DNA of 60,847 nt, filler included, from Dugesia japonica (taxonomy: Eukaryota), in NCBI GenBank assembly GCA_001938525.1. It is 5 parts of 5 records of this genome, joined end to end, with 100 filler letters (N's around TTAATTAATTAA, not from the genome) between each part and the next. Parts side by side here need not be neighbours in the genome. Positions count along the whole stretch, not along the records: positions 51,327 to 60,847 come from MQRL01590342.1; 4 more parts are not named here. One strand, given 5' to 3'. Shown piece after piece: positions 9,048 to 54,578 of this stretch (its first letter is position 1; each line of letters opens with the position of its first letter). The translations under genes were made by a program, and so were the position numbers. The notes under the pieces were generated by a model. That model worked only from the letters and a program-made list of their open reading frames with translations, searched no databases and was not told the DNA's origin.

Positions 9048-10227
9048 TTAGGTTGGTAAGAAAATAATTGCGGTTTTATATAATATTACTTTAAAAGTAT
9101 TTATTACTATTTTATTGTGAAATATTATTTTTGGAAGATATGTTGGATAAATATCAAATACGAGCAATATTCCTATATAAATTTAAACTGGGATATAAAG
9201 CAGCAAAGACGACTTGGAAAGTCAACAATGCATTTGGCAATGAAACTGCAATAAAAATATCGGTGCAATTTTGGTTTAAAAATTCAGGTGTAGATCAGAG
9301 CCTTGAAGATGGCGAAGGTCGGGGACGTCCATCAGAAGTTAGCAAGGACGATTTAAAGGTAATGATCGAAATAGGTCCACGCGCAACAATTCGGGAGCTT
9401 GAAAAGAATTTAGGCTTAATTCATGTAACAGCTTTATACCACCTCCATCTACTTGGAAAAGTACGGAAGCTCGATTAATGGGTTCCGCATAAATTGAACG
9501 ATTTTCAGAAAAACCCCGGTTACAAGATCTGCTCGCCAAATCTGTTTATAAATAAAACCAATCCATTTCTTGATTGTATTGTGACTTGCGACGAAAAATG
9601 AATTGTATACGACAATAGAAAGCGGGCACCGCAATGGTTGGACATATGTGAAGCACCATATCATTTTCCAAAGCCGAAATTGCATCAAAAGAAGACAATG
9701 GTAACGGTTTGGTGGTCCACAGCCGGTCTGGTTCATTACAACTTTTTAAATCATGGTGAAAGTACGAAGGCAGAAAAATATTGTCAAGAAATTGACGAAA
9801 TACCACAAATTGAAATCTATGTGCGCTGCATTAGTTAACAGAAAACATCCCATTATTCTTCACGAAAATGTCTGTCCAAATGTCGCAAAACTATCCCTGC
9901 AGAAACTAAATGATTTAGGATTTGAAAGTCTGCCTCATCCACAATACTCCCCGGACCTGTCACCAACCGACTGTCATTTTTTTATCATCTCTTCAATTTT
10001 CTTCAAGAGAAAGTCTTCCATTACGACAAAGATGTTAAAAATACCTTCCTCGAGTTCGTCGAATCCAGGACAGAGGATTTCTATTCTATTGGCATAAATA
10101 AACTTATTTCTCATTTGGAGAATTGTATTGATTGTAATGGTTCGTATTTTGAATAAAATATCTTTATGTTTTCCGAGATTCTTAGTTTTATATATTAAAA
10201 ACCGCAATTATTTTCTTACCAACCTAA
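9048..10227 (+). mobile_element. Full-length mariner element with perfect 30-bp TIRs and TA TSD; transposase disrupted
   Basis: TIR TTAGGTTGGTAAGAAAATAATTGCGGTTTT (9048-9077) and exact reverse complement (10198-10227), TA on both sides; transposase motifs VPHKL, IVTCDEK, HPQYSPDLSPTD with stops and frameshifts. Confidence 0.95.
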
Positions 10228-28469: not shown

Positions 28470-29460
28470 AACTGATCAATTAAATTAAGAATAAAGAGGT
28501 AAAATTAGTTTGGACTGAAAAACGTGAAGAAGCGTTTAAAAGTCTAAAAGAAAGTCTCACAAAAACACTAATATTAAGACATCCAAGTTTTCAGAAAACC
28601 TTTATTTTAGATACAGATGCAAGTTTTGATTCAATGGGCGCAGTTTTATCACAAAAAGATGAATATGGAAAAGAATTCATCATTGCATATGGATTGAAAA
28701 GCATGAATAAACATGCAATTGGATACTGCATAACTAGGAAGGAATTGTTATAAATTTTTCACTTTGTACAACATTTTAAACATTACTTATATGGAAAGAA
28801 ATTCATTTTAAGAACAAACCATAAGTCAATAACTTTTATGATGACTACAAAAAAATCAATAACAGCTCAATTTCAAAACTGGATAAATTTTTTAAGTAGT
28901 TTGGATATGATTCTAGAATATCGTAAAGTTGAATCACACAATAACGCGGATGCCCTATCAAGGTTAGATATAGAAGATTGCAAACAATACCAGATGGCCC
29001 ACCAATATGCGAAAACAGAAAAAATAAATACAAAGATTTTCGCAATTGAAGATATAAAAATGAATATAAATGGCAAAGCAAATGTAAGGAAATTGATTCA
29101 ATAATATCAAGAATCAATGAAAAACAAGAAAGTAAATTTTATATGGATAAAAACGTAGTTTTTAGTCAAAAAAAATAAAATATATATCCCCTAAGAAAGA
29201 GAGCAGGAGTTTGTTTTAGAAACACACAAAGAGCTGTGCCATGCTGGGATTAATAAACTCATTAATTGTATCTCTGCATCATTCGATTTTACAAATATGA
29301 ATAAAACTATCAAAGACATTATTACAAGTTGTGACTTTGTCACAAACGTAAAACATTTGCATACAAAACAAAAGAAATTATGGTTAAAAGTAATGTACAT
29401 GAAATATTTCAAAGCATTTTTATTGAGTTTTGTGGATCATTTCAGACTACATTAACTGGA
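28470..29460 (+). mobile_element. Gypsy pol remnant (RNase H plus integrase zinc-finger region)
   Basis: FILDTDASFDSMGAVLSQ, YCITRKELL, HYLYGKKFILRTNHKS, HNNADALSR, HKELCHAGINK. Confidence 0.9.
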
Positions 29461-36982: not shown

Positions 36983-39082
36983 TAGGGCTGCAAACGATTA
37001 ATTTAAATTTAATAATTAACTTTTGATAAATTAACAGTTAATTAATAAATAATTTCGATTAAATCATGAAAACAAAAACTTTAGTCATATAAGCCACATT
37101 TATAGTTGTATTTGTCGAAAATCGAAATAACACTGGATCAGCTTGTTCATATGTCATCTAATAACCAACTACGCCAACAGACGAGCATGTTGACAGTATT
37201 TGGTTTAAGTGATGAGCGAGTCTTGTTAATAATATTACCAGCAGTGCTAAACAGTCGTTCACATGGAACTGAGGAAGCTGGTATGCACAGAATGGTCTTG
37301 TCAAGGAATGCCAATCTAGGATATAGATGTTCACTAAGTTTCTACCATTTTAGAGGGTCAACTAATTCAGCAAATTTCTTCTCCATTATATAACGCAGTA
37401 ATTCATCAGAAGAGCTGTCGATATGATTTTCAGTGTCTTAGTCAGAGTCAGATTTCATTAGCTTAATACTCTTTTCATTTAGTTCACAAATAGTATCTTT
37501 GTCAATATCAGTATCATAATCATTCACCACAGCAGACTCCATCNNNNNNNNNNNNNNNNNNNNNNNNNNNNNNNNNNNNNNNNNNNNNNNNNNNNNNNNN
37601 NNNNNNNNNNNNNNNNNNNNNNNNNNNNNNNNNNNNNNNNNNNNNNNNNNNNNNNNNNNNNNNNNNNNNNNNNNNNNNNNNNNNNNNNNNNNNNNNNNNN
37701 NNNNNNNNNNNNNNNNNNNNNNNNNNNNNNNNNNNNNNNNNNNNNNNNNTCTACGATGATAGCAGTGGCAATACACACCTATATGAAGCATAACCTTCAC
37801 CACCAACTAGGACCGTGGCCTTCCAGAATAAGTCCAAAATTGTGATATATTTTAAAATCTTCTCATAATCCAAATTTGACAGTTTTGGACATTTGTATTG
37901 GTTCTTTTCATCCGACATGTAGAAAATGAGTTCTTCTCTGGCCTGCAAAAGACTCTGCAGCACAGTAAAAATATTGTTCTACCTTGTTGGTACATCTTGT
38001 TGTAGTTTTCACAATAGTGACTCAGTACAATTTTCCAATTCAGTTGTGTTTGCAGCACTATGACTAAAATTTCCGACAATCTTTCGACATTTGCCAAACA
38101 ATGTTTCGGTATCAGTGGCTTTAAATCCATGCAATATGCTTAGCTGTACGCTATGAGCAAAACATGGAATATNNNNNNNNNNNNNNNNNNNNNNNNNNNN
38201 NNNNNNNNNNNNNNNNNNNNNNNNNNNNNNNNNNNNNNNNNNNNNNNNNNNNNNNNNNNNNNNNNNNNNNNNNNNNNNNNNNNNNNNNNNNNNNNNNNNN
38301 NNNNNNNNNNNNNNNNNNNNNNNNNNNNNNNNNNNNNNNNNNNNNNNNNNNNNNNNNNNNNNNNNNNNNNNNNNNNNNNNNNNNNNNNNNNNNNNNTTGC
38401 CTAGAGATGTCCAAAAATCAGTTTTCAGTGCAACTCCCTTTGCAATTTTCAATGATTCGTTAACTCTTTGAATCTTGCTGTTATACTTAGCAGTCAACAG
38501 TTTGCCAATAGTGGGGCGGAACGGTAGCTTATAATCAGCATTTTGCAATGCTATCCGTAATACTTGTTGAAGGCCGTCATCGTCTACTATTGATATTGGT
38601 CTGCCACTACTAGCAATCCAGTTTGCAAGTGATGCTTGAATATCATGCTGTAATGCAGCACTCATTCGACGATCAGACAGACAACAAAAGTGAATCAAAG
38701 TAGCCTGCTTCGAAGTAGATGANNNNNNNNNNNNNNNNNNNNNNNNNNNNNNNNNNNNNNNNNNNNNTGGATGTTGGTTTTGGAGATGGTAAGTAAGCGA
38801 GGTTTTAGAACCATGGTAGGCAAACGATTTATCACAATGAACACAATGAACCTTTTCAGCATTTTCAATATTTCCATCAGTCAATACTTTCATCCCAAAA
38901 TGTTCGTGTAATCGTCCGGAAATTTGTTTATATTTTTCCGCTGCCATATTGTTATTTCTAGACTTCTGGTACATTTGTAAGTGATAGGTGAAAAAAAATT
39001 AGATTAATAGTTAAAATAAATTTAATCGTTAATAAAAATTAACGATTTATCGATAAATTAATAGTTAACTTTTGCAGCCCTA
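36983..39082 (-). mobile_element. Near full-length hAT (ZBED1-like) element with 8-bp TSD
   Basis: TIRs TAGGGCTGCAAA / TTTGCAGCCCTA; TSD ATATTTAC at 36975-36982 and 39083-39090; BED finger CVHCDKSFAYHGSKTSLTYHLQNQH, TDFWTS, PCFAHSVQL, IPASSVPCERLFS. Confidence 0.95.
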
Positions 39083-44759: not shown

Positions 44760-45250
44760 AGATGGGGCAGTCTTGATATTTTACATGCGAAGTATCTATA
44801 TTTTGCATGGTATGAAGGGATTCTCTATATTCTGCATGGTATCGGGAGTTTCTATATTTAGCATGGGGAGACTCTATATTTAGCATGGGGAGACTATATT
44901 TTGCATGATGAAATTCTAAATTTTGCATGGTATAGGGAGTGTCTACATTTAGTATGGGGAGACTCTATATTTTGCATGGGGAAACTCTATAATTTGCATG
45001 GAGAAACTCTATATTTGGCATGGGGAGACCCTATATTTAACATGCGGAGACTCTATATTTAGCATGGGAAGACTATATATTTTGCAACTCTATATTTTGC
45101 ATGAGACGACTCTGTATTTAGCATAAGGAGTTTCTATATTAAGCATGAGGAGACTCTATATTTAACATTGGGAGACTCTATATTTAGCATGGGGAGACTA
45201 TATATTTTGCATGAGATAGGGCATACTTGATATTTTGCATGACATGGGCA
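44760..45250. repeat. 22-bp minisatellite (ctctatatttagcatggggaga), about 20 degenerate units
   Basis: Directly visible tandem units. Confidence 0.9.
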
Positions 45251-45259
45251 GATTTTTTA

Positions 45260-45920
45260 TTTACATACTAACCCTGTATTATAGAGTTTATGAGTATATT
45301 ATTTACATTTTAACCGTGTAATATAAGGTTAACGAGTATATTTTTTAGTTAGAAACCGTGTACTATATGGTTTATGTTTGAATTAGCAATAGTTTATTAT
45401 ATGGATTTTTGTGTGTAATATTTACATAGTAACCTTGTATTATAGAGTTTATGAGTATATTATTTACATATTAACCATGAAATGTAAGGTTTATATGGTT
45501 ATTATTTGTATAGTTACCTTGTATTTTTTACATTAAAACCTTTTAATATATGAGTTTTGTGTGTATTATTTACATAGTAACACTGTATCATAGAGTTTAT
45601 GAGTATATTATTTGCCTATTAACCGTGTAATATAAGGTTAACAAGTGTATTATTTACTTATCAACCATGAAATATATGTTTTATGAAGTTATTATTTGCA
45701 TAGTTACCTTGTCGTATGGAGTTTATTTATAATATTCAGATAAAAAATCATAGTTACTATGTTTTATTTACATAACAACCATAAAATATATGGTTTATGA
45801 GTTTATTATTTGTGTAGTTACTTTGTATTATTTACATATTAACCCTGTATTATTTACATTTTAACCGTGTAATATAAGGTTAACGAGTGTATTATTTACA
45901 TAGTAACCGTGTATTATCTA
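45260..45920. repeat. ~40-bp minisatellite (aaccctgtattatagagtttatgagtatattatttacat...)
   Basis: Tandem degenerate units; reverse-complement copies at 49320-49640 and 50490-50570. Confidence 0.85.
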
Positions 45921-46366
45921 GTCTACAATAAAATCAGATATCAAGATCTATTTGCAACTACATGCGGTCAACTCTGTTTATTATGGTGGGAAAAAAACAA
46001 CATTGTACTTGACAATATTTATTTTTTCTTGTTTATAAAATAAATGTTTTTTATTGAAATGAAATCTTAGTTATTTATTAAAACTAAGAATAAAAAAATA
46101 AAATAACAACTTTTATTTATAAAATATTGGTAGGTAATATCCTATTAATACATGTTTTATTATTATTTTGACACGTTTTATTATCTAAAAATTAAAATTA
46201 AAATAAAATACTGTAACGTAATATGTCTGTAATGTTTTAAATTAATTTGACATTTTATAATACACACGTACTCGAATTTGATTGGTAAGATTTGATTAGT
46301 TAGATTTGCAAACCTTGAAAAAAGTTATTAATATTCATCACAATTTCAAATTATTTTTACAAAACC

Positions 46367-48779
46367 AGAGAACAAATTCAAGAGAGCTTAAAGTAATTTA
46401 TTATTATTATTAACATTATTAACTTTTATTTTTAGAATTATCGTGAATTCGTATGAACAAAATGAAAGAAGACTTATTTCAACTATGATTGCTGTAAGAT
46501 TGTTATAATTTATTATTATAATTAATTAATTATGTAATTTAGAATTTTAACGAATTTAGACATGAAGATGAAGGATCTCGAATGTTTGTGAATGGATATT
46601 CGCGTAAGTTTTTTTAAATATTTTTTATAAGTTAAATTTTATTAAAATTTTTAAAACTATTATGAAAAACCAATATTCTATGTCGCGTTCCATGATATGT
46701 TCCTTTATGTGATATTATGAAAAAATGTTCTATATTTTTTAATGAAAAAGTTCTATGCTTTTATCATTTTTCTGGAAAATTGCATCGCTAGTATGTTTTT
46801 TTTTAAGTAAAATTACATTGTCAATATGTTTTTTATATGCAAATTGCATCGCTAATATGTTTTACTTTGGAAATTTGCAACGCTAATGAGATTTTTTATT
46901 AAAAATTGCATCACTAATGGGATTTGTTTTTATTGAAAATTGTCACTCTTATGTTTTTTTATGGAAAAATATCATAGCTTATATATTTTATAAAGAAAAA
47001 ATGTTATTAAAATCATTATGTTATTATTATATTATTATTAAATTATTTTAGAACATTGCAAATTATACAACCATTGCGCAAGTGCGAGTCACAATGGTGA
47101 CTGCCATAATATCATGGAAGGATACTATGGCGAACGGTTTTATGGTAAAAATTATTTTGTGTGTCCTAATTGTAAGGTTTTAGGTTTAGGTGACTACTTA
47201 AGTGTTTATAGGACGCATATGAAACACTTATTTTGTTTTAGTAAAAGTAAAAAGAATATATTAAAATCAATANNNNNNNNNNNNNNNNNNNNNGAGTTTT
47301 ATGAAGCATCAGTAAATAAGAGAATTAAGATGGAAGAAATAATACTTAATGACGAACAAGTTGAAATAATTGTTATTGAAGATAACGTTGAAGAAATAAT
47401 AATCAAGGATGAACCAATTGAAATAATTAAATATGTTGTTGAAGAAATCATCAATGTAGAACCGGAAGAAGAAACAGTAAATATTGTTCAAAAAGAAGAT
47501 GCAATCAATACTGAATCAGATGATTGGAACAGTTTTGAAGTACTTGATGAACTTGATGAAGAAGATATAGTGTTACAACAATTTATGGATGCAGAAGAAG
47601 CGGAAAATAATAATCAAGTTGGTGGATTGATAATGAATAATGGTGACGCTATAATGTTACAACAATTTATGAATGCAGAAAAAGAGGAAAATAATAATTA
47701 AGCTGGTGGATCAGCAAAAAATACTGTGGATGATGGAGTAATTATAGAATCAGATTTGAATAGCTGTCATAAGATACTTAAAATAGATGTTTTCAGATGG
47801 AATTGTCGTGAAATAATGTTACCAGAAGCAATAGTTGCAAAATTTTTTCAGGCCATAGAAGAATGAAACAGGTTGAAATTCAATTTGGGGTGCATGTTGA
47901 GTTCAAGGCTAATAACGACAAATGCTGATGGAGAAAAAGAGGAGTTTAAGTCCTGTAGGATATCAAATAGAGCCGTTGCATTAACTGACAACTTTTTTGA
48001 AGATGGGATAAACCAATTAAAGGTAAAAATAACAATAAGAAGCAAATCAGGCTCCAGTTGGATGTTAAATCGAATACTGGAAATTAATTTTAAGATTAAA
48101 AATGTTGTAGATATTTATCGACTTTCGAGAAAAAGTTGTATTCCAACACCGAAAGATCTAGAAAAGAAAAACGCCATTCTAAACATTAAGAACAATGATA
48201 ATTACAGTTTAATTTACAGTTTTCTTGCTGTCATCAAAAGTGATCAAGCTGGGCAAAGGAATAAAAACCGCGTAACATTATATAAAAAATACATGTCGGA
48301 GCTTGTATTCAACAAAGAAGATATGCCGATGAAACTGAATGATATACCAAAGCTCGAAAAGAACAATCCAGGAGTATCCATCAATGTCCTATCATGGAAT
48401 CAAGAATCATTGGAGGATGAAGAAGATGATATAGTAATGAAACATCCAAATTTGGATATAATACACAGGTCAAAAGTGATAGATGGAGAGAAAATATATC
48501 TGTTATTACTAGAAAATAATAACAGATTTCATTACACTGCAGTAACAAACCTAAATTGACTGATAAACAGGGATAATAAAGGACATGATGTTCGTATTCG
48601 ATCAAAATGGTGTACTAACTGTCTCAACGGGTTCAAAAATAGAGAAGCTTATGAGAAGCATGGACCAATTTGCAAAATAAAATCCAGACAAGTACTATCA
48701 TGTATACTATGCAATCGGAGAAGAACTTGATTTTTTAAGGATTATTCATTAGCAATAACACCACTTTTTGTTATATATG
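46367..48779 (+). pseudogene. Spliced N-terminal half of a Polinton/adintovirus-type protein-primed DNA polymerase B (exons ~46367-46392, 46436-46493, 46543-46603, 47052-48779)
   Basis: SGSSWMLNRILEINF..SCIPTPKDLEKKNAILNIKNNDNYSLIYSFLA..PMKLNDIPKLEKNNPGVSINV..IYLLLLE..FHYTAVTNLN..WCTNCLNGF..HGPIC..PLFVIY; track ORFs 47114-47701 and 47873-48559 share one frame broken by point stops; catalytic domains absent. Confidence 0.8.
46650..46990. repeat. ~30-bp minisatellite (gaaaattgcatcgctaatatgttttt) inside the 448-nt intron
   Basis: Tandem units; related direct block at 49700-50090. Confidence 0.75.
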
Positions 48780-49319
48780 GTATGTATTTATTTATTTATA
48801 CATGTTTAAATGTTTTATTTAGATTATAATGATTATAAAAGTAAACAATGTAAAAAAACATTTGTGAACGTTTAATCGGTCCTCTTTATGATCAAAAGTG
48901 TATATTGTTGTATATTGATGAATACAATATGCTATTATTATTATTATTTTTTAGTTTTTTATTAGTTTTTTTAAAATTATTATTTATTAATTTTTTTATT
49001 ATTACAAACAAGTATTAAAGAAGAAGAAAATAAAACTAGTTGTTGTAATAATACATTCTTCTTATTTTAAATAGTTTTTTTAGTTATAAATGCAATATGT
49101 ATGCAATAGGAACGCAATTGGAATGCAAAACACATTCACTGAAAATCACATGCCTAGGATTTTTTTAAAATTNAATTNAATTTAAAACTGTCCAATATCT
49201 TTGACAAATATCATTGCAAAATATTAAAACTGACCAATGACCAACAATAATATCACGATAGTCCAACTAAAATCGCTAAAATATAAAAATGATCTAAAAC
49301 ATATTCCTCCCACATAGAA

Positions 49320-49640
49320 TATCTAAGTAAATAATACAAACAAAATACATGGAACTATGCAAATAAGCCTTATATTACTCGATTGTTATGGTAAAAAATT
49401 CAAAGTAACTATACAAATAATGTACACATAAACCTTATATTTCATGGTTTAAATGTAAATAATATACTCATAAACTCTATAATTCAGGGTTAGTATGTAA
49501 ATAATACACACAAAGCCCATAATAAACGGCCGCAATATAAAAAATACAAGGTAACAATGCAAATAATACATTCATAAACCCTATAATACAGCGTAACTAT
49601 GCAAATAATATACTCATAAACCTTATAAACTCATTAACCC
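49320..49640. repeat. Inverted copy of the 45260-45920 minisatellite
   Basis: aatgtaaataatatactcataaactctataattcagggttagtatgtaa is nearly the reverse complement of 45261-45309. Confidence 0.85.
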
Positions 49641-51326: not shown

Positions 51327-51341
51327 CATACCTATTAATTG

Positions 51342-51643
51342 TTTATAATGATATCCATTTTCCTTTTCTATTTACAATTTTCTTACCATACATTTTGGTA
51401 CGTTTCTTGAAATTACTCAACTGTTTCCTTTTGCAAATACTCTTTCGTTTCCTATTTTTTAGGTTTTGATTGATTGTGAGGTTTGGAAATACCTTTCAAG
51501 TTCTTAACTAAAACTTTTTAAAATTTAGTCATTTTGTTTTTTCATAGAAATTACTTGGTTTGTTTAAAATGTAATATTTTTAGGATTGAAAATATCGGTT
51601 CGTACCCTCATATCATCCGGACATTGTTGTGTAAAATCTAAAA
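51342..51643 (-). pseudogene. Second copy of the ATPase C-terminus plus basic protein
   Basis: LDFTQQCPDDMRVRTDIFNPK followed by a Lys-rich frame ending ...MYGKKIVNRKGKWISL*, paralleling 51884-52230. Confidence 0.7.
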
Positions 51644-51694
51644 NNNNNNNNNNNNNNNNNNNNNNNNNNNNNNNNNNNNNNNNNNNNNNNNNNT

Positions 51695-51848
51695 TACTCA
51701 TATTTACATTTCCGCGAACAATAGTTATAATAATTTCAAATACATCATCCATAACAAGCGTTGGAAATGATTTTAAAAATTGCTTTCTCGCTGATTTTGA
51801 AGATTGAATTAAAGATGTTAAAAATGCAATACTTCGTTGTAATTTCAT
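51695..51848 (-). CDS. Polinton small conserved protein (PW-like), truncated by N gap
   Basis: MKLQRSIAFLTSLIQSSKSARKQFLKSFPTLVMDDVFEIIITIVRGNVNM fits the LxxL...RKxxL...EIxxNxLxGNV pattern of the small gene found near the Polinton ATPase. Confidence 0.55.
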
Positions 51849-51883
51849 TTTATATTTTAATAATATAGCTTACCTGTATTTGT

Positions 51884-52087
51884 TTATAATGATTTCCATT
51901 TTCCATTTACGTTCGACATTTTCTTATCATACAGTTTCAAAAGTTTCTGAGAAATGTTCAACTGTTTACTTTGTTTCCTCTTTCCACCTTTGTTCTTTTT
52001 TACAATAAGCTTTTTTGATCGTTTTTCTTTCTTCACTTTAGATATACTCTTGATCTGATCAACTTCAGTTTTCTTAAATTTTGTCAT
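51884..52087 (-). CDS. Small Lys-rich basic protein, putative virion core or DNA-binding protein
   Basis: MTKFKKTEVDQIKSISKVKKEKRSKKLIVKKNKGGKRKQSKQ...GKWKSL, directly downstream of the ATPase. Confidence 0.5.
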   Translation of the reverse strand: MTKFKKTEVDQIKSISKVKKEKRSKKLIVKKNKGGKRKQSKQLNISQKLLKLYDKKMSNVNGKWKSL

Positions 52088-52103
52088 TTTAAAAATAATA
52101 TAA

Positions 52104-52730
52104 TTACTTAGTTTGTTTATACACAGTAACACCATCAGGATTGAAATATTGGTTCTCACCCTCTGTTCGTCTGGACATTGTTGTGTAAAGTTGAGAAAAA
52201 TATAACCATGTGAATTTATTGTTGCATCTTAAAATGATTCAATAAGAAATTGTCTATTATTAGGATAGGCCTGTCTTGCTAGAAAATCAACAACTGTTTG
52301 ATCTCTTGGATTTTTAAATATAACCAAGTATTGTACATTTAAATTACGTGTCCTTTGACTTTCTCCTTGATGGGATAAATTTTGAGTAATGAATATTATA
52401 GTCACATTACAATGTCTGTTTATTTTTGTAAATAAATTATTAAATTCCTTTTCTTTGTTTGCCTCCTGATACAGATCATCTTCTACGATAGCATCACCCG
52501 GCTTCAATCTCTTGCTCCAATTTTTATCAAATCCCTTTATAATTGTCATTTTAATGTTGCAAAATTCAGATTGTGTCAATCCATGCTCTTCATTTGCACC
52601 TCTGTGTCAATATATTTTGTTAATTTTTTTATTTAAATAAATTAGATTTTAGTAACTTGCATAAAAGTAAGGTTTTTCCACTACCACTTGGACCAACCAC
52701 TTGATAAACATCATCATTTCTCAACACCAT
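52104..52730 (-). pseudogene. A32/FtsK-HerA family DNA packaging ATPase (Polinton/adintovirus type)
   Basis: Walker A VVGPSGSGKT, Walker B AIVEDDL, RHCNVTIIFITQNL, NLNVQYLVIFKNPRD, HGYIFLNF; a few stops and frameshifts. Confidence 0.9.
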
Positions 52731-52851
52731 TTTATACAGATTTAATCAAATGCATTGTTTATAATACTATTTGTCTTTTTTTAAATGAATTAATTAATTT
52801 AATTTCTGGAAAATACATATATATACGCATATTTAATAAAAATCATTAGTA

Positions 52852-53302
52852 ATGTTAGTTAATATTAATTACAAAGGTAAAGCAAGACAAGATGTAACAA
52901 GCAAAATGAAGTTTTCTATTGGTAAATCTTCTCAATATGTGGACAAAAGTAAAAAATATACATTAATAATNNNNNNNNNNNNNNNNNNNNNNNNNNNNNN
53001 NNNNNNNNNNNNNNNNNNNNTTGGAAATGGAAAAATTATAGTATGATATAAAATATATTCGTTTGCAATCATTAACAATTGAAATCAATTTGGGGCAAGT
53101 AATCAATTTGTATAAACTAGCAAAAATAACGAAATGTTGGTTTGAACCAGAATTGTTTCCTGCATTACAACTTACAAAGTATGATCCTGTATGTGTAAAC
53201 GTATTTTCATCAGGCAAAATTGTAATACTCTGTATAAAGACTTTATACAATCAAGGATATGTAGATAATATAATTTCTGATTTATATAATTTTATTGTTT
53301 AA
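52852..53302 (+). pseudogene. TATA-binding protein (TBP)-like gene, divergent from the ATPase
   Basis: LQSLTIEINLGQVINLYKLA..CWFEPELFPALQLTKYDPVCVNVFSSGKIVIL matches the TBP repeat consensus (I.L..LA...YEPELFPGL....P.....IF.SGK.V); first repeat short and divergent, crossed by an N gap; one in-frame TAG. Confidence 0.8.
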
Positions 53303-53485
53303 TTTCACAACACGAATGCACATTGTTGCAATATGAATGCAAGTATAACAAGGCATTTCCTTATTTGATTATTACTTGTTTTTTCATTGGTCNATTTTAA
53401 TTGGTCGATTTGTGTTAAACCNAGAATTGTATATAACACATTACATATTTCATTTTAATCAGTTGTTAATTTTTAAAAAAGTAAA

Positions 53486-53789
53486 ATGAACCCAATTCAA
53501 ATCGAAGAGATCAGAAAGACATGTATTGAATCCGCTGAGTCAGATGGTCAGATGGAAGATTTGATAAATGAAAAATGTACGTATTTTATTTTTATTTATT
53601 CATTATTTATAATTTTTATTTTCAGATATTATCGCAGTTATTTTACTAAGAAAAAGAATGGCCTTGAAGAAAGAAGATTATGAGGCAATTTTGAGACAAT
53701 ATCACAAGGCGATATATCTCCGCGCTCACTGGGAGTGCTACCGATGCAGATATGGTCTACTTGAAAATCTTATCAATATTTACCAATAA
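53486..53789 (+). CDS. Intact two-exon orphan gene, 84 aa (exons 53486-53576, 53626-53789)
   Basis: 49-nt GTACGT..TTTCAG intron; spliced frame open from ATG to TAA (…YLRAHWECYRCRYGLLENLINIYQ*); AATAAA overlaps the stop. Confidence 0.65.
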
Positions 53790-54147: not shown

Positions 54148-54578
54148 TTATAAAATGTCTCGAATTTTCTAAATTGGAGAGTTTACTTTTCTATTAATTG
54201 AGTTAATGTTCTCTGCATTTTTCTTGACTCCTTGTATTTCCACCTGGATTATATATTGCTAAGATATTTCGAATACAATCGATTTTGATTCACTGTAATT
54301 GATGAAAACTGTATCCTTTATTGTAATCGTTGATTCAATTCTTTGGAATAATAAATTCAAAGTATTCATGTCTTTGGAACCGATATCGGATATCAACACA
54401 CTATACGTAGATGGTTGTATCTTCACAGGTTCCTAAATGAAAATATTAAATAATAAAATAAATAAATGCATATACTCGAAACATATATACTATTGGTATC
54501 TTCAGGAATTTCATTTGGATTCCATGAAATTCCGTAGGCTTTCCGTAATCCACAGCGATGGTCATAACATTATCTTTT
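54148..54578 (-). pseudogene. Spliced orphan gene, paralog of 60101-60570
   Basis: 58-nt intron 54490-54433; EPVKIQPSTYSVLISDIGSKDMNTLN...IKDTVFIN...YIIQVEIQGVKK; one in-frame stop. Confidence 0.5.

Follow-up and report, generated by a model that had tools for sequence, protein, structure and literature searches.

A reduced TATA-binding protein family encoded by Maverick elements and a gene-class-specific box upstream of their particle genes

A window of Dugesia japonica DNA (the whole 60,847-nt stretch analysed, from assembly GCA_001938525.1) almost certainly holds a real, element-encoded and reduced TATA-binding protein (TBP) gene lying in a dead Maverick fragment. The family to which this gene belongs is element-borne, adopts the two-lobed TBP saddle and is under purifying selection. 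Judging from upstream regions, the TBP genes of this family never carry the putative promoter box (T/C)ATAAAC(A/G) (YATAAACR) and often have a host-type TATA and initiator arrangement; at most particle genes the box stands a set distance ahead of the start. We consider it probable, if only by a little, that the TBP of an intact element binds (T/C)ATAAAC(A/G) and would recruit host TFIIB and RNA polymerase II to the packaging and capsid genes. The window copy is itself a dead fragment, and its value rests in the family.

The TBP-like gene is a broken copy of the short-N-lobe subgroup located at 52852-53302 (+). Its segment 53042-53299 matches the Pfam TBP domain (PF00352) with 35.9 bits (cut-off 22.9, E 6.5e-9), bearing out the TBP repeat that a first-pass annotation had recognised by inspection, and a sequence search of the PDB with the same segment returned TBPs exclusively (35 sequences, best E 4.9e-10). 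The closest intact relative, P0001 (152 aa), is 80% identical in the C-terminal part and shares 23 of 39 residues in the N-terminal part. That the gene is intronless and lacks an N-terminal extension also holds: each relative consists of one ORF of about 150 aa, and the window gene offers no space for an intron. It contains one sure stop (53039-53041) and a 50-N assembly gap (52971-53020), the latter at a position spanning about 15-17 residues in the relatives. As the run of N need not match the true gap length, a frame change over the gap is no evidence of decay. A "GKIIV" right after the gap, in the frame of the ATG, was considered as strand 5 of the first repeat and rejected as a chance resemblance, since the relatives show the other frame. 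The first repeat had been described as very divergent, and it is; this is not a product of decay, however, as the repeat is short and divergent in intact relatives too and is hence a family trait.

The start codons of the TBP-like gene (52852, +) and of the neighboring ATPase (52730, -) are separated by 121 nt of AT-rich DNA containing a TATATATA run, at precisely the positions first assigned to them. This spacer contains a putative host-type core promoter layout for the TBP gene (52818-52847, +), composed of TATATATA at 52818-52825, 27-34 nt upstream of the ATG, and an initiator-like TCATT at 52843-52847. Alone, TATATATA is weak, with 16 matches in the 25%-GC window versus 7.9 expected; together with TCATT, it fits the TATA and initiator layout found upstream of 20 of 50 dereplicated relatives. 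A small two-exon ORF was observed just after the TBP gene (53486-53789, +), with a predicted short intron (53577-53625) ending in TTTTCAG; it gave no Pfam match of note in its unspliced frames and no match in the 80 related loci described below.

The minus-strand gene is a broken packaging ATPase of the A32/FtsK type (52104-52730, -), as first proposed. Its match to Pfam Pox_A32 (17.6 bits) falls below the cut-off of 22.8; a Walker A motif is present, and the gene is 73% identical over 162 aa (E 2e-78) to the ATPase of a related Maverick locus, L010. It is damaged by stops at 52607-52609 and 52229-52231 and by frame changes near 52628 and 52143. Decay of the two genes had been described as similar; both are broken, with one sure stop in the TBP-like gene and two stops and two frame changes in the ATPase.

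Further pieces of the element lie on the same strand as the ATPase. A small lysine-rich ORF at 51884-52087 (-), recognised by translation, gave no match in a Pfam scan, and from its composition our guess is a virion core protein. It is followed by the start of a conserved Maverick gene (51694-51848, -; tblastn E 2e-10), cut by an N gap, whose cluster (C4) is present in 19 of 80 related loci and which we take to encode a probable core protein. At 51336-51641 (-), the ATPase tail and the lysine-rich ORF occur a second time, as a duplicate that has diverged to 67% identity. On the other side of the TBP-like gene, 54214-54429 (-) weakly matches cluster C3 (31% over 80 aa, E 1e-4), whose gene is a direct neighbor of TBP in 19 of 80 related loci. 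The N-terminal third of a protein-primed DNA polymerase B (pPolB), broken and truncated, lies at 47860-48781 (+) and is 36% identical over 283 aa (E 8e-45) to a protein of locus L013, which clusters with proteins matching Pfam DNA_pol_B_2 (two of three scanned cluster members match). An adenain-like match spans 23 aa only (45918-45986), and integrase and capsid genes of the element were not found in the window, which holds a Maverick fragment. Inverted repeat arrays at 45257-45920 and 49371-49628 flank the pPolB piece alone. Tandem arrays of 22-nt and 42-nt units were noted at 44766-45930 and 49371-49628; the 42-nt array recurs inverted beyond the pPolB fragment, contains about ten copies of (T/C)ATAAAC(C/T) and may represent an element end or a separate non-autonomous element. 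The surrounding window is repeat-rich eukaryotic DNA. Host background in it includes two weak, exon-like glycosyl hydrolase 47 matches at 20094-20396 and 25380-25679 (-), together with other sites at 9095-9478, 21271-21582, 28484-29455 and 38400-38998, the types seen being mariner HTH, zinc knuckle, gypsy-type RNase H and integrase pieces, and BED finger.

The gene has many relatives. A protein search with its C-terminal piece yielded 26 relatives out of 28 candidates, with P0001 the best, and a profile search of 1.8 billion cluster representatives recovered 60 proteins at E <=1e-30; among the 150 matches listed, 144 were judged to be family members and six to be other TBPs. A wider profile gave 1,144 matches among 1,904 candidates, a number that may include ordinary TBPs, and none of the 120 matches listed bears an NCBI or UniRef name. 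Five relatives score 45-65 bits against the Pfam TBP profile, and family proteins are mostly about 145-180 aa long. A pattern search of metagenome contigs gave 257 matches, of which 121 could be confirmed; the best 80 of these constitute the related loci used below, all picked for carrying the TBP gene and partly non-independent, many having common contig-name prefixes. A single ORF of at least 130 aa bearing both lobe motifs is present in 64 of the 80, and several of the remaining 16 are interrupted by a contig end. The TBP-like gene recurs in sibling as well as distant elements and is thus no one-off. Six scans of viral contigs (with the TBP piece, a TBP alignment, two divergent TBPs, and ATPase and capsid alignments) confirmed no relative.

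The family is under purifying selection, with dN/dS values of 0.04-0.35 in 15 of 16 disjoint pairs and the remaining pair saturated. An IQ-TREE analysis was run on 47 selected rows. One branch (support 100/95) has all 28 family rows on one side; the eukaryotic TBPs group separately (97/96), and P0001 is the sister of the window piece (99/89). The reference TBPs in this tree were 13 eukaryotic sequences of fungal, algal and protist type and three archaeal ones (no animal TBP, TRF2/TBPL1 or named giant-virus TBP was among them); the family lies outside the cellular TBPs so sampled, in keeping with the initial view that the gene is not host TBP. Three divergent TBPs fall between the family and the cellular TBPs, a placement made unsure by long branches. 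Two N-lobe forms were also noted: a longer-N-lobe grade with a shortened H2 (L047-L069, P0082-P0172) and a short-N-lobe clade (L001-L046, P0001-P0081; support 99/97) in which H2 is lost. This arrangement suggests a stepwise reduction of the N-lobe.

The saddle expected of a TBP was recovered in an AF2 model of P0001 (pLDDT 91), a two-lobed structure with a ten-element sheet. The model aligns with an archaeal TBP at a VIA Z of 12.2 (rmsd 3.0, 146 of 152 residues); against whole TBPs, Foldseek gave E values of about 1e-7 and VIA a Z of 10-12 over 143-149 residues, with the best non-TBP fold at Z 6.9. ESM Atlas likewise places P0001 among TBP clusters, and identity of the family to solved TBPs is 20-26%. 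A complete second lobe follows a first lobe in which H1 is short and H2 is absent: strands 45-51 and 64-77 are joined without any helix of at least four residues. From strand 5 to the second lobe, the window's subgroup has 18-24 residues versus 33-34 in cellular TBPs.

Residues were counted in yeast numbering over 265 proteins gathered without a motif filter, with DNA contacts taken from Table 1 of PMC12529657; counts for F99, K145 and H2 come from a motif-filtered set in which 131 of 166 proteins were kept. According to one study, two C-lobe glutamates of TBP bind TFIIB, and basic residues of H2 bind TFIIA, TAF1, Brf1/2 and Mot1 (PMC7221094). The glutamates, which by our own mapping are C.L3.2 and C.L3.4 as named in that text, are kept in the family (E186 in 237/264, E188 in 260/264). 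The H2 stretch, by comparison, has a mean of 0.75 K+R versus 4.3 in eukaryotic TBPs, and the K145 column is gapped in 125 of 131 proteins. Three intercalating phenylalanines are kept (F116 239/241, F190 262/264, F207 259/259), as are N69 (213/219) and P191 (230/264); a gap replaces F99 in 126 of 131 proteins, which leaves the family without the full set of four found in a canonical TBP. On the DNA face of the N-lobe, V71 is replaced by N (187/220), V122 by R (239/241) and T124 by M (257/257), and further replacements are N159>S/T (262/265), V161>T/S (263/265), L205>N (258/259), I194>R (218/264) and V203>C (216/260). In these alignments, then, the family retains the surface for host TFIIB, has lost the one for regulators and has settled on a new DNA face.

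The neighborhoods of the 80 related loci identify the carrier. Neighbors include an ATPase (28 loci), rve integrase (16), PLA2 (15), capsid (12), pPolB (9) and adenain (9), and at least one of these Maverick genes is found in 43 of the 80 loci and in 22 of the 25 that span at least 4 kb. The double-jelly-roll label of the capsid comes from ESM Atlas, where it scored 0.98 against a cluster of which 65% of the members carry PF21738; a single-sequence fold of the candidate reached a pLDDT of 30, and PDB profile searches with capsid, C2 and C3 gave no significant match. A Pfam scan of 41 neighbor proteins found no TFIIB and no RNA polymerase gene, in loci that are partial and in which many neighbors have no Pfam match. 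The head-to-head pairing of TBP-like gene and ATPase is real in the window but not typical: of 28 loci that carry both, 26 have the two genes in tandem with the ATPase downstream, one of the two exceptions being divergent with 1.7 kb and other genes in between and the other having the ATPase upstream. The layout is local.

Several neighbors merit mention in their own right. By eye, the proteins of clusters C3/C14, C15, C16 and C20 (e.g., L013:1502-2138, L023:1296-1868) resemble single-strand DNA-binding proteins, a likeness that drew no support from databases; their genes are mostly without the box, several have TATA and initiator, and C14 and C3 appear to be exons of one spliced gene. Cluster C2 (e.g., L037:5870-6355) encodes a protein of about 160 aa with conserved C/H residues, is present in 22 of 80 loci and often adjoins the TBP gene. 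Its N-terminal motif is, we presume, exonuclease-like, and its protein is a candidate partner of the TBP-like protein.

The upstream regions of these loci, dereplicated at 75% identity, revealed the box. The top hexamer, ATAAAC, occurs in 136 of 265 regions versus 17 in shuffles, and 161 of 292 YATAAAC sites lie within 100 nt upstream of ORF starts, a zone comprising 5.7% of positions; for YATAAAG the count is 9 of 152. Among particle genes, the box precedes the ATPase in 23 of 25 cases, the capsid in 9 of 10 and PLA2 in 9 of 11, and it is also found before C4 (13/17), C2 (14/18), C6 (10/15), integrase (10/14) and adenain (3/5). It is rare or absent before pPolB (1/4), C3 (3/17), C16 (1/7), C14 (0/6) and the TBP gene (0/50). 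A TATA with TCA(C/T) shows the reverse distribution, being present upstream of TBP (20/50), C16 (6/7) and C14 (4/6) and of none of 25 ATPases. The labels "early" and "late" are our own, based on gene type and motif; the box occurs in 82 of 131 "late" and 4 of 62 "early" cases, a split that is partly circular since the classes were set with the motif in view. Many TATA-less TBP genes were seen by eye to carry TTGTTT(T)A about 30-60 nt before a ATCATAATT-like element (L009, L014, L016-L019, L021, L025, L031, L035, L041, L042, L044-L046, L049). In a separate observation, CATAAACR is commoner in longer-N-lobe elements (24 of 59 versus 9 of 64 sites).

The distance from the box to the downstream ATG has a median of 38 nt (IQR 36-43.5, n=83). 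A reading of the box as a poly(A) signal was considered and rejected: it is present at 2 of 24 convergent ends, lies within the upstream coding sequence, ahead of the stop, in 39 of 83 cases, and is found in divergent spacers (the window, L001, L003, L004 and L073). By its placement, the box would occupy a promoter position. Within the window as a whole, YATAAACR sites are no more frequent than chance (21 versus 21.7). Four of them, however, lie on the minus strand of the Maverick fragment, three standing 33, 34 and 40 nt before successive starts: TATAAACA at 52756-52763, in the divergent spacer, before the ATPase ATG; a second at 52114-52121, within the final ATPase codons, before the ATG at 52087; and a third at 51881-51888, before the ATG at 51848. 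The fourth (51340-51347) lies in the duplicate. The first-pass annotation had suggested that the element's TBP either redirects host Pol II to element promoters or acts as a decoy, and had missed the box at 52756-52763, on the minus strand of the spacer it described. Specific support for redirection, as read from sequence, comes from the TFIIB-contact glutamates together with the gene-class-specific box.

Genomic and transcript reads place the window copy among many. Two DNA runs that bear the same species label contain, respectively, 10,260 and 9,109 contig pieces matching 51330-53390 at 82% or more; most are at 90-95% identity, and they cover all 30 bins, the spacer included; one 194-nt piece links the spacer to the TBP start, and none of the pieces listed spans both starts. 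At the stop-codon site, the window differs from nearly all of the matching depth and from every one of the 16 RNA reads that run X22 has there, so the stop is peculiar to this copy. Run X22 contains 1,014 matching reads out of 13.6 million, only 22 of them at 95% or more, which shows low-level transcription of relatives rather than of the window copy. Both mate directions are present and the same one dominates over the TBP gene and the ATPase; the ATPase signal is thus mostly antisense under the usual convention, and the pattern does not support a regulated divergent programme. In addition, 38 reads match up to window position 52790 and then run into other sequence, which indicates that, upstream of the ATPase, the best-transcribed relative is flanked by different DNA.

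A two-stage programme could be built from these parts. Host TFIID would read the element's TBP gene early. The product would dock host TFIIB through its C-lobe EPELFP stirrup, host TFIIB being the proposed partner because no element TFIIB was found, and the shortened N-lobe, having lost the basic helix H2, would escape control by TFIIA, TAF1, Mot1 and Brf1. The TBP N-lobe contacts the 3' half of the TATA box (PMC1636458). The conserved C of the Maverick box lies in that half, on the N-lobe side, where the family differs most, and this C near the 3' end may be read by the N-lobe through its remodelled DNA face (V122>R, T124>M, V71>N, no F99). The model expects C to be preferred at position 7 of YATAAACR, with TATAAAAG as the comparison sequence. 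The changed base-pair-2 specificity of yeast TBPm3 is assigned to I194, V203 and L205 (PMC1636458); all three are altered in the family, yet position 2 of the box stays A, which the model leaves unexplained. In the window spacer, an early promoter would lie on one strand and a late box on the other, in a copy that is itself dead. Whether a widespread animal Maverick lineage runs such a programme, in which host TFIID makes a TBP of about 150 aa that reads YATAAACR and fires the virion genes via host TFIIB and Pol II, we regard as evenly balanced on these data. Two of the counts weigh against a switch: only 20 of 50 TBP genes have the TATA and initiator pattern, and the box also precedes integrase (10/14). 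Because every locus was chosen for its TBP gene, the box could also occur independently of the TBP-like protein; scans of viral contigs with ATPase and capsid alignments for Mavericks without a TBP gene found none.

Host TBP might instead read YATAAAC, the element's protein serving to soak up TFIIB or to block host TATA promoters as a decoy or shut-off factor. The TFIIB-contact glutamates are indeed the best-kept surface, one phenylalanine and the H2 helix are lost, and host TBP itself may read TATAAAC: a PDB entry among the matches is titled as wild-type TBP on a C(-25) variant box, which by that title wild-type TBP can bind. Such a role is nevertheless unlikely, as the DNA-facing positions, far from being relaxed, have settled on new residues (R 239/241, M 257/257, N 258/259), pointing to a specific DNA target, and the non-canonical C is retained in the box over elements whose capsid identity falls to 26-29%. 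We attach a similarly low probability to a general role, whereby the TBP binds DNA and recruits TFIIB without distinction among the element's promoters, or else acts as a repressor of the early TATA ones, its own included, with the box a weak host-type TATA. The retention of P191 and three phenylalanines, the TATA-like character of both promoter types and the presence of the box before integrase would all suit it; the sharp gene-class split (no box before 50 TBP and six C14 genes, versus 23 of 25 ATPases) would not. Non-transcriptional bending of DNA at element ends, in replication or packaging, is very improbable: TBP-like folds occur in rolling-circle initiators (Z 6-7) and the 42-nt repeats flanking the pPolB fragment hold about ten (T/C)ATAAAC(C/T), but these repeats, only candidate element ends, lack the A/G that follows the box before genes, and the TFIIB stirrup hardly varies. 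An isolated processed pseudogene, derived from host TBP or TRF and placed beside an ATPase, for which the intronless, broken window copy and a tree without animal TBP or TRF2/TBPL1 might speak, is scarcely credible in view of hundreds of intact relatives with recurring Maverick neighbors under purifying selection, a branch separate from 13 eukaryotic and 3 archaeal TBPs, and the roughly 10,000 contig pieces per run that match the 2-kb stretch in two DNA runs.

Whether Mavericks still form particles in animals is a long-standing question, and the Polinton literature searched does not address the timing of their capsid and packaging genes. If the favoured reading of a TBP dedicated to the particle genes is right, a single factor and a defined 8-nt box would make late-gene control directly testable and provide a sequence marker for the promoter class. 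The family would also constitute a natural experiment on TBP, with the TFIIB surface kept, the TFIIA/TAF1/Mot1 surface dropped and the DNA face rebuilt.

The related loci share with known Polintons/Mavericks (adintoviruses) the pPolB, rve integrase, FtsK/A32 ATPase, adenain, PLA2 and double-jelly-roll capsid genes. In the literature searched, the only mention of TBP with Polintons is an abbreviation in the legend to maps of MELD viruses, in a section on non-animal datasets (Starrett et al., 2021; PMC8502044; bioRxiv 10.1101/697771). The portions of text available from its two versions describe no such TBP family, residues or promoter box, and the main text of the other Polinton papers searched contains neither TBP nor TATA; prior annotation is possible. 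With cellular TBP, the family shares the two-lobed saddle, F116, F190, P191, F207, N69 and the C-lobe EPELFP glutamates; it differs in its length of 150-170 aa, its shorter first lobe, the lack of F99 and of a basic H2 patch, new fixed DNA-face residues and its separate branch. A further parallel is animal TRF2/TBPL1, a TBP paralogue that has an altered DNA face and still binds TFIIB. TRF2 retains its two helices and its binding of TFIIA but only one of the four phenylalanines, whereas the Maverick family keeps three.

TBP-like proteins of Nucleocytoviricota are likewise virus-encoded and have lost the eukaryotic N-lobe regulator surface (PMC7221094), and giant-virus TBP-like proteins were matched by Foldseek against BFVD at 12-20% identity. 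In the same study, conservation at the first TFIIB glutamate is about 40% in giant-virus TBPs, which mostly lose the glutamates and bring their own TFIIB (PMC7221094). The Maverick family, in contrast, keeps both glutamates, and no TFIIB match was found among 41 neighbor proteins. A parallel in proposed principle is KSHV ORF24 and EBV BcRF1, in which a viral TBP fold serves a variant TATA box (TATT) before late genes with host Pol II. ORF24 is a 752-aa multidomain protein that keeps the four phenylalanines, carries polar DNA-face substitutions at L114, V122, T124, V161 and L205, binds Pol II directly and is predicted to be incompatible with TFIIB (PMC12529657). The Maverick family is not a member of the ORF24/BcRF1/UL87 mimics: the likeness of BcRF1 is at fold level only (E 1e-3), and the family is a bare core of about 150 aa that keeps the TFIIB glutamates and has no large Pol II-binding N-terminal domain. 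If the proposed switch is correct, it would represent the third independent conversion of TBP into a late switch by DNA viruses, after those of herpesviruses and giant viruses, and the smallest natural TBP of altered specificity.
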